Positions 24,817-31,752 of a DNA stretch of 64,000 nucleotides are shown here, piece after piece. The notes beneath the pieces were generated by a model. That model was not told the origin of the DNA, made no database searches, and saw only the letters and a program-made list of their open reading frames with translations. The translations under genes were made by a program, and so were the position numbers. The DNA is from Escherichia coli (GTDB lineage Bacteria; Pseudomonadota; Gammaproteobacteria; Enterobacterales; Enterobacteriaceae): the NCBI RefSeq assembly GCF_001677475.2, contig NZ_CP015229.1, one strand, 5' to 3'. Numbering within the stretch: position 1 is the stretch's first letter; the number at the start of each line of letters is the position of its first letter.

Positions 24817-25516
24817 GGGAGTTCTACCGCAGGGGCGGGGAACTCCAAGTGATATCCATCATCGCATCCAGTGCGCCCGGTTTATCCCCGCTGGCGCGGG
24901 GAACACCAAATCCAGCCAGCCGCCGACGGTAATCACCCCGGTTTATCCCCGCTGGCGCGGGGAACACTATGGGGTAGGGCGCTATCAGACATTTACGCAC
25001 GGTTTATCCCCGCTGGCGCGGGGAACACTGCAAGTAACGTTAAGGGAACCGTGGAGACAGCGGTTTATCCCCGCTGGCGCGGGGAACACTTAGAAAACGC
25101 AATGAGCCGCGCGCCCATACCCGGTTTATCCCCGCTGGCGCGGGGAACACGGCACGCTGGACTGAACAAATCCCTGGGCCATCGGTTTATCCCCGCTGGC
25201 GCGGGGAACACACTTACAACCACAATAATAAAAAAAGCCTCGTCGGTTTATCCCCGCTGGCGCGGGGAACACGCCGCTATCTCACCACCAGAACTGTTAC
25301 CCGTCGGTTTATCCCCGCTGGCGCGGGGAACACTTGCAGTGGATAGTCATGTAGCCCGCGCGGGCCGGTTTATCCCCGCTGGCGCGGGGAACACTTTAAA
25401 TACTGCCGTTCCAGCTTGTTGATCGCCGGTTTATCCCCGCTGGCGCGGGGAACACCGTAACTGCCTGTACACGCTGTAATGGCTCACCGGTTTATCCCCG
25501 CTGGCGCGGGGAACAC
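24817..25516 (-). CRISPR. CRISPR array 1 (type I-E): 11 identical 29-nt repeats plus 1 degenerate terminal repeat, 11 spacers of 32 nt
   Basis: Repeat CGGTTTATCCCCGCTGGCGCGGGGAACAC (plus strand) recurs at 24878 + 61k for k=0..10. Degenerate distal repeat at 24817-24845 (GGGAGTTCTACCGCAGGGGCGGGGAACTC). Leader is on the cas2 side, so transcription is on the minus strand. Confidence 0.97.
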
Positions 25517-25612: not shown

Positions 25613-26822
<1,210 letters not shown>

Positions 26823-26826
<4 letters not shown>

Positions 26827-27473
26827 GCCTCTGCTCCGGGTTTGATCAGCATCAGACCACAACCGAACGCCCGGCTTTTGCCATACCCCTGACTGAGACG
26901 TTGCAGAAATAACCCAGGATCGGTGACCGTAAGCATCCCCGTATAATCCACGCTACTGAACTGGATCAGTTGCCGGGAGTTTTCCCGCCGCAGTTGCTGT
27001 TGTCGGTAGGCATCAACCGAAGTATCCAGCAGTGTAAAACCGCTTCTCTCCCCCTGCGCTGCCAGCCAGTTCAGCGCAGCCTGTTGTTGATGCAACCAGA
27101 CATCACTTCCTTCCACCGGCCCCCTCACCTGCCGTTTCGCCTCCATCAGCAAGTCGTGGCGTTTGCCCGCTTTACAAATTGTTGGATTCGCCCGCAGGTT
27201 GAAACAAAGGGATTGTCCGGTACGCAACTCTGGCGCAAATGGTCGGCATTCGATGGTGAAAATATCACTTTCCGCCGGGCGTTCCTGCGACAGGACAAAA
27301 AAGCGAAACGCCCCCTGGAGTTCTTCCCGACGATAAAGAAATTGCCTTTCTTTGCCGCCAGGAAAAAGATCCCACAGCCACTGATGCATTACATATTCAC
27401 CGCGATCCACCAAATGCAGCAACTGCGCAGGCGAAAGCTGGCCGGTATGTAATGTTATTCTTGAGAGGTACAT
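26823..27473 (-). CDS. cas6e: crRNA endoribonuclease Cas6e (CasE)
   Basis: Start at ATG 27473 (MYLSRITLH…) preceded by AAGGAGGA; 216 aa; Gly-rich C-terminal segment (GYGKSRAFGCGLM). Strongly diverged from K-12 CasE as recalled. Confidence 0.9.
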
Positions 27474-28201
27474 GGTTCCTCCTTGCTGAGCCACGGCCCC
27501 TGATTGATGGTGCGTTCCCCAAACAGCCACTGCTGACGATTTAAAGGAACATCCCGGCGACGTAATATTTTGCTCGCGACCAGGCCGTCGTGTTCCCCTT
27601 CCCACCAGCATTCATCCTGAAGTTTCGGGAGTGAGACTTTCAGTTCGCGGAAACTATCCTGATACTGTTGGTATGCGTTACGTAAGACATCAGACGCGTT
27701 GCCTTCGAGCAGTAACGGCGCAAGTGGTAACGCCAGCGGATGACTTTTTCGCCCCAGATAAAGCGGAAAAACCGGATGACGTAAACCGTCCTGCAACTGT
27801 TCAAGGCTGTAAGGCGCATCGGGGGTTGTTGCCACCGCCACCATCCACCAGGCATCGGTGTAGTAGTCGCGCCGGGAGATAATCGCGCTCAGAAGATCAG
27901 GGGCGCTCAACTCTTCGCGACGGCTGAAATAACGCGCTTTACGCACCTCTTTTGGCATCTGGACCGTGTGATAATCCCGTGCCCAGCGCGGGTTACGGCT
28001 GGCGCAAACCACCAGTGAATAGTGGCGGTTAAACGCGTTTAATCGTTCGGTATCATCACGCCGAATCCCTACCCCGGCAGCCAGCAGCCCCAGCAATGCT
28101 GAGCGCGAAGGCAGTTCATGGGTATGACGCACTTCGCCGGGGGCATCGACGCCCCAGGATGCCATTGGCCCATGAAGCTGAAAAATCAAATATTGGCTCA
28201 T
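27455..28201 (-). CDS. cas5: Cascade subunit Cas5e (CasD)
   Basis: 248 aa; N-terminus MSQYLIFQLHGPMASWG parallels K-12 CasD (MRSYLILRLAGPMQAWG); 19-nt overlap with cas6e start. Confidence 0.9.
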   Translation of the reverse strand: MSQYLIFQLHGPMASWGVDAPGEVRHTHELPSRSALLGLLAAGVGIRRDDTERLNAFNRHYSLVVCASRNPRWARDYHTVQMPKEVRKARYFSRREELSAPDLLSAIISRRDYYTDAWWMVAVATTPDAPYSLEQLQDGLRHPVFPLYLGRKSHPLALPLAPLLLEGNASDVLRNAYQQYQDSFRELKVSLPKLQDECWWEGEHDGLVASKILRRRDVPLNRQQWLFGERTINQGPWLSKEEPCTSQE

Positions 28202-29281: not shown

Positions 29282-29818
29282 TTAATTTTGTTCGTTATCG
29301 GCGTCGCCAGCCTGGTAATATTCCAGCGCCCAGCGGATACGGATAAATTCTGTTGGCCGCTGCTGGCGGCGGTGATGATTGAGCAGATCGTCGCTCTCCT
29401 GGCACCAGCGGAAAATATCGTCTGCCAAAGAGATAAGATTGACGGAACCATTTAATAATTTGACCGCGCGACGTAACTGGCGCAGTAATTCATCCGGCGT
29501 TTTGACTGCCGACAGGCGAGTAAAACGCCCCTCAGACATTACCGCCGCCAACTGCGCGGCAAAAGGCTGCCGTTCATCAATGGCTTTTACATTGGCGGCA
29601 ACGGCGGCAACCAGCGCCAGTGCGGTAAAACGCCACTCCTGTGATTCAATTTTCCACAACGTGTGGGTCTGCATCAGCAGTGAACGAAACCCTTCTGACA
29701 GACAAACATCATTAACCGTTGTGCTACGCCGCAGACTGGCACGATTGCCGCGTTTTTCCTGCAACTCTTCGTGCCATTTACGCAGCGTGGCTTTGTGCTC
29801 CTCTTTTACAATACTCAT
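29282..29818 (-). CDS. cse2: Cascade small subunit Cse2 (CasB)
   Basis: 178 aa, basic helical protein between cse1 and cas7; ATGA overlap with cse1 stop. Confidence 0.85.
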   Translation of the reverse strand: MSIVKEEHKATLRKWHEELQEKRGNRASLRRSTTVNDVCLSEGFRSLLMQTHTLWKIESQEWRFTALALVAAVAANVKAIDERQPFAAQLAAVMSEGRFTRLSAVKTPDELLRQLRRAVKLLNGSVNLISLADDIFRWCQESDDLLNHHRRQQRPTEFIRIRWALEYYQAGDADNEQN

Positions 29819-31377: not shown

Positions 31378-31752
31378 ACGCTTTCCTCGCAAATAAGACC
31401 ATCCATGGTAGGTTGTCCATCACCATATTCAAGAATCAATCGAAAAGAGAGATTACATCATATTAAATGAATATATTGAAAATTAGATTATTATTAAATA
31501 ATCAATAAATCACACGAATATATAAAGATAATTTTCTATAATGCTTTTCGCTCAGGCTCTATCACTTAATAAAAACCAAAGTATTCTTTATCAAAAGGTT
31601 TTTCAACTCTGCTTCCGGACATTGTTACATATATCAATAACTCTTAGAGATTTTCTTTATTTCGAATAACCCTTATTTTTGATATAAACGTCTTCAGTTC
31701 CCTGTCTAAGGGATTAACCAAGTTAGTGATACACGTATATCATTTTATGCTC
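31378..31752 (-). promoter_or_regulatory. AT-rich cas3-cse1 intergenic region, presumed Cascade operon promoter
   Basis: 375-nt strongly AT-rich spacer upstream of cse1. By analogy with K-12, where this region holds the H-NS-silenced, LeuO-activated Pcas promoter; not demonstrated here. Confidence 0.45.

Follow-up and report, generated by a model that had tools for sequence, protein, structure and literature searches.

The DNA analysed here, called the window below, is a 64,000-nucleotide stretch from Escherichia coli. A complete type I-E operon lies on its minus strand, in the order cas3-cse1-cse2-cas7-cas5-cas6e-cas1-cas2-CRISPR-iap, and every cas ORF in the window is full length. Of 5426 complete E. 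coli genomes, 2659, O157 among them, match the cas6e-cas1 region with 90-99.4% identity, and the operon is of the cas-EO type. This non-K-12 (O157:H7-type) variant was presented by Diez-Villasenor et al. 2013 and linked to CRISPR-A repeats (PMC3737337); the repeat of the window ends GGGGAACAC on the opposite strand, which corresponds to the CRISPR-A type of cas-EO. The features relevant to the junction are the following:

25903..26826, minus strand: cas1 (type I-E Cas1e), 307 aa, with GTG 26826-26824 as the probable start and the stop at 25905-25903; supported by TIGR03638, the match to K-12 PDB entries, RefSeq and public proteins
26823..27473, minus strand: cas6e (casE), 216 aa, from ATG at 27473 after AAGGAGG to the stop TGA 26825-26823; supported by TIGR01907 and RefSeq cas6e (651 nt)
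26823..26826, minus strand: GTGA, the 4-nt overlap of the probable cas1 start and the cas6e stop, read directly; [A/G]TGA in 17 of 17 clade sequences
26834..26837, minus strand: GGAG, a Shine-Dalgarno-like core 7 nt upstream of GTG, within the cas6e codons GGA-GCA
26860..26862, minus strand: TTG chosen by the ORF rule and, judging by the comparisons below, not a start codon; it straddles the cas6e codons GGT-TGT (Gly-Cys)
25613..25906, minus strand: cas2, 97 aa, whose ATG overlaps the cas1 stop as ATGA (25906-25903); the RefSeq cas2e/cas1e overlap is 4 nt
24817..25516, minus strand: CRISPR array of 12 repeats with 61-nt spacing (GTGTTCCCCGCGCCAGCGGGGATAAACCG), the last one degenerate, read directly; RefSeq has a CRISPR direct_repeat at the equivalent place in strains GF43 and 104

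The operon and its proteins

Both proteins that meet at the junction are readily identified. Cas1 matches the NCBIfam profile TIGR03638 (cas1_ECOLI) with 379.3 bits against a cutoff of 215.6, covering profile positions 3-268 of 269, and Cas6e matches TIGR01907 with 286 bits against a cutoff of 45.2, its residues 1-212 spanning profile positions 1-207 of 208. The position of cas1, 3′ of cas6e and 5′ of cas2 and the CRISPR array, fits the Cas1e context. The metal-binding and catalytic residues of K-12 Cas1, E141, H208, D218 and D221, are identical in the window Cas1 according to the alignment to 3nkd and 5ds4, which includes RGIEGSRVR. The protein is a standard type I-E Cas1e at a standard junction, already annotated as such in public databases.

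The ORF list that accompanied the sequence was made mechanically, by taking the first ATG, GTG or TTG following a stop codon, and it gives cas1 as 25903..26862 (319 aa, from TTG) and cas6e as 26823..27611. The same rule over-extends cas6e, which is listed with 262 aa from ATG 27611, while the real start is ATG 27473 (216 aa), with AAGGAGG upstream and a profile match that is complete from residue 1. Gene cse1 is listed with 525 aa from a TTG (31378-31392 region); RefSeq casA has 520 aa. The operon contains two further 4-nt ATGA overlaps, cas1/cas2 (25903-25906) and cse1/cse2 (29815-29818), and an overlap of 19 nt between cas5 and cas6e. The CRISPR array holds 11 spacers between repeats of the 'CRISPR-A' type, and its degenerate last repeat is GAGTTCCCCGCCCCTGCGGTAGAACTC.

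Genes of this cas variant are inactivated in several E. coli genomes. An internal stop interrupts cas7e in GF43, which at 99.4% is the complete genome closest to the window; E. coli 13E0725 has a frameshift in cas6e, and E. coli HH97 has frameshifts in cas6e as well as cas1e. A 4.5-kb contig of a metagenome-assembled genome labelled 'Bacillota bacterium' (JAEWTL010000035.1) encodes a Cas1 that is 99% identical to that of the window and an identical cas6e tail; the contig most likely belongs to Escherichia and was mis-binned into a Bacillota genome.

The start codon of cas1

Direct reading of the minus strand places TTG at 26862-26860 and GTG at 26826-26824, in the same frame and twelve codons 3′ of TTG. 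The codons in the cas6e frame are GGT TGT GGT CTG ATG CTG ATC AAA CCC GGA GCA GAG GCG TGA and those in the cas1 frame are TTG TGG TCT GAT GCT GAT CAA ACC CGG AGC AGA GGC GTG AGG TTT GTA CCG; there is no stop between TTG and GTG in the cas1 frame of the window. A Cas1 begun at TTG would have the N-terminus MWSDADQTRSRG, the translation of this form being LWSDADQTRSRG followed by 14 further residues, and would overlap cas6e by 40 nt (twelve sense codons and GTGA). GTG shares bases with the cas6e stop TGA (26825-26823), forming GTGA at 26826-26823. An earlier sequence-only reading had placed the ORF-track start of Cas1 at TTG 26862, inside the last 12 codons of cas6e, and had proposed instead GTG 26826, overlapping the cas6e stop as GTGA; the sequence and the ORF list confirm these positions, and the GTG, the stop and their overlap all lie where that reading had them. 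Both candidates exist, but its description of the start as ambiguous is too strong, because the TTG candidate arises only through the longest-ORF rule.

The comparison with K-12 favours GTG, as the sequence-only reading had argued from the similarity of the N-termini. The window Cas1 has 83% amino-acid identity to K-12 Cas1 (YgbT; PDB 3nkd, 4p6i, 5ds4), and the PDB match (E=5e-174) is aligned from residue 14-15 of the 319-aa form (3nkd, 5ds4), equivalent to residue 2-3 when counting from GTG; similarity to K-12 Cas1 accordingly sets in at residue 2 of the 307-aa form. The K-12 N-terminus is MTWLPLNPIPLKDR, encoded in MG1655 DNA by ATG ACC TGG CTT CCC CTT. Numbering is identical in the two proteins from residue 1, with both N-termini at one position (M-T-W-L-P-L in K-12 versus V/M-R-F-V-P-L in the window). 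The match to the NCBIfam Cas1e profile sets in at residue 20 of the 319-aa form, and nothing from the K-12 Cas1 structures or the Cas1e profile aligned to the 12-residue TTG extension.

Alignment with Cas1 orthologues, the check proposed in that reading, gives the same result. The GTG-aligned codon and the upstream frame were inspected at 80 loci, one each from distinct species, and the aligned codon is ATG or GTG in 62 of them; in nearly all the remaining genomes the start lies one to four codons away. When the window and two E. coli loci are counted along with the 80 relatives, the nearest start is ATG in 66 cases, GTG in 16 and TTG in one. In E. albertii the cas1 start codon is ATG and the overlap is kept as ATGA. 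The last two Cas6e residues of E. albertii NBRC 107761 are altered to fit the ATG (AEA to AAT).

Public gene calls place the start at the same codon. RefSeq has cas1e at the 4-nt overlap in nine of nine E. coli genomes inspected (924 nt; 921 nt in two strains). The exact 307-aa Cas1 of the window (MRFVPL..., with Arg2) occurs in 44 public contigs, with the overlap called in the contigs that were read, and its Thr2 variant occurs in 281. Exact look-ups among about 15 billion proteins found neither the 319-aa form, in its Arg2 or Thr2 variant, nor the L-start and V-start Cas1 sequences; these public calls are interdependent, sharing similar start-finding heuristics and homology. The support for the start site is comparative or annotation-based throughout, and it indicates with high confidence that Cas1 starts at GTG 26826 and has 307 aa. 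The start preferred in the sequence-only reading is thereby supported as correct.

The cas6e-cas1 overlap and translation of cas1

The GGAG core occupies positions -11 to -8 (26837-26834), 7 nt before GTG, and a scan for core motifs detected no Shine-Dalgarno core upstream of TTG. The predicted energy of the duplex with the anti-Shine-Dalgarno sequence is -6.7 kcal/mol for GTG versus -5.5 kcal/mol for TTG, and Shine-Dalgarno-like cores of at least 4 nt precede 21% of the start-like triplets in the operon; with energies so close and cores so frequent, the Shine-Dalgarno evidence is only supportive. Further information comes from the close relatives of the locus, a clade defined as 17 sequences with the Cas6e tail GCGLMLIKPG and three variable residues. 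The glycine codon that supplies GGAG is GGA in all 17, while the other degenerate codons of the Cas6e tail all vary. The invariant GGA fits selection on an RNA signal and may partly reflect shared ancestry. Every one of the 17 clade sequences likewise keeps the 4-nt cas6e/cas1 overlap, despite free variation in the last three residues of Cas6e. Among the wider relatives having a long upstream ORF, 30 of 72 have overlaps of -4, -1 or -8.

The gene pairs with -4 overlaps that were tested in E. coli proved to be generally coupled by termination-reinitiation (Huber et al. 2019, PMC6728339). The junction of the window resembles the ATGA/TGATG coupled pairs of that study in being co-directional, within one operon, overlapping by 4 nt and carrying a Shine-Dalgarno motif in the upstream gene; it differs in starting with GTG rather than ATG. 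A literature search for translational coupling of Cas1 in type I-E systems found nothing. A consensus pattern scan of the stretch from cas6e to the start of cas1 detected nothing resembling a promoter or terminator. On a polycistronic cas mRNA, ribosomes ending at the cas6e TGA would restart at GTG one base upstream, with GGAG aiding the restart. The combination of GTG as the start codon, a ribosome-binding site of modest strength and reliance on cas6e being translated would hold production of Cas1 to no more than that of Cas6e. Translation of cas6e and cas1 is probably coupled through the 4-nt overlap in this manner, and it is reasonable to suppose that the choice of start sets Cas1 dosage relative to Cascade.

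The main competing view of the mechanism accepts the same start codon and holds that GTG is reached by de novo initiation directed by GGAG, the overlap being compact packing with no coupling to cas6e. The correctly spaced GGAG with its invariant supplying codon agrees with such initiation, as does the free-standing Shine-Dalgarno sequence with a 15-nt spacer in K-12. Folding of the mRNA at the junction is no more stable than that of shuffled sequence (z = +0.8), and a start-masking hairpin is not indicated, so there is no inhibitory structure for upstream ribosomes to open. Consequently, coupling, if present, would be independent of hairpin opening, and Shine-Dalgarno-driven initiation stays live as regards the mechanism, not the start site. 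However, the overlap is strict within the clade in spite of the free variation of the last Cas6e residues, the tested -4 overlaps of E. coli are generally coupled (PMC6728339), and the combination of a short Shine-Dalgarno core and GTG speaks for reliance on a ribosome that has already loaded onto the mRNA. De novo initiation is for these reasons rather unlikely, and coupling across the overlap is the preferred reading.

The arrangement in K-12 differs from that of the window. The K-12 casE-cas1 junction has ATG, a 15-nt intergenic spacer and the Shine-Dalgarno sequence GAGGTG, whereas the window has GTG and the 4-nt overlap with the cas6e stop; Cas6e is highly diverged between the two variants. 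Since K-12 manages without the overlap, the latter is not needed for Cas1 expression. A recombination breakpoint between K-12 and O157 types at the junction was also considered; it was dropped because cas1 has about 70% DNA identity over its full length with no step.

Other possible starts of Cas1

The variable base of the TTG triplet is also the last base of a glycine codon in cas6e (GGT or GGC), and the TTG/CTG polymorphism is therefore silent in Cas6e. The two alleles were counted with two 33-mers differing at one base, an exact 28-base word across the site being needed. Among complete genomes of E. coli, 559 have TTG and 2051 have CTG, and between them the two alleles account for about 2610 out of roughly 2615 genomes with the cas6e-cas1 junction; TTG is missing from 78% of E. 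coli with this operon and occurs in roughly 21%. CTG is also present at the four fetched loci that are closest outside E. coli (E. albertii, Escherichia sp. MOD1-EC7003, Pseudocitrobacter vendiensis and one E. coli-like contig). O157 has CTG at position -12, in contrast to the minority TTG of the window. The cas1-cas2 genes of O157:H7, cloned and introduced into O157:H7, gave spacer acquisition (PMC3737337). In each of the six more distantly related members of the clade (Klebsiella spallanzanii, K. indica, K. grimontii, Intestinirhabdus alba, Citrobacter sedlakii and C. youngae), one or two stops interrupt the cas1 frame between -12 and -1, and synonymous changes leave the Cas6e peptide GCGLMLIKPG intact. 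Given these stops and the preserved peptide, the extension can be regarded as cas6e read out of frame. On this comparative evidence, TTG is no start codon but an in-frame triplet created by the less common of two synonymous alleles at a cas6e glycine codon.

Use of both codons, with GTG as the main start and a minor extended Cas1 isoform in the roughly 21% of strains that have the TTG allele, would be compatible with TTG being in frame and with the lack of a stop before GTG in the window; weak internal initiation at near-cognate sites or sites without a Shine-Dalgarno sequence does occur in E. coli. The triplet, however, lacks a Shine-Dalgarno sequence and is embedded in an ORF that is itself actively translated, its allele shows the behaviour of a neutral silent change in cas6e, and the extension bears no sign of selection, all of which makes a second start very improbable.

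A start at TTG 26862 alone would give 319 aa, with the 3′ end of cas6e, read in its other frame, supplying the first 12 codons. TTG is a legal start in bacteria, it opens the longest ORF, and in Escherichia no stop interrupts the cas1 frame over the 42 codons before GTG. But the extension has no homology and is interrupted by stops in the six distant clade members, no Shine-Dalgarno core precedes the triplet, TTG is missing in most E. coli with the operon and in the four closest loci outside the species, and no public gene call uses it; TTG as the sole start is highly improbable. Initiation at the earliest ATG of the cas1 frame, which encodes Met17 of the 307-aa form (TSMIFLQ), has a negligible probability, as residues 2-16 are conserved as protein over the 80 genomes with varying codons and align to K-12 Cas1 residues of the crystallised protein.

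With GTG as the start, codon 2 of the window cas1 is AGG (Arg; 26821-26823, minus strand), whereas all other sequences inspected have ACN (Thr). The 61-mer around the AGG codon has an exact match in no complete RefSeq E. coli genome. AGG is rare in E. coli, and its occurrence early in a gene reportedly reduces expression. In strains with the TTG allele a minor share of ribosomes might start at 26862, and, separately, AGG at codon 2 might lower Cas1 output; either would make spacer-acquisition capacity strain-dependent. Such a consequence is very doubtful, and the TTG isoform and the effect of the AGG codon are both minor matters and unlikely ones.

The relevance of the start assignment is confined to correct annotation: Cas1 here would be the standard 307-aa protein, and the GTGA junction is the one that RefSeq gives for this cas variant. 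An ORF track built on the first start after a stop over-extends genes, in this case cas1, cas6e and cse1 within one operon. Coupling of cas1 to cas6e, if true, would add a small detail, namely that the Cas1-Cas2 adaptation module is held at or below the level of Cascade in the O157-type operon, in contrast to K-12 with its free-standing ribosome-binding site.
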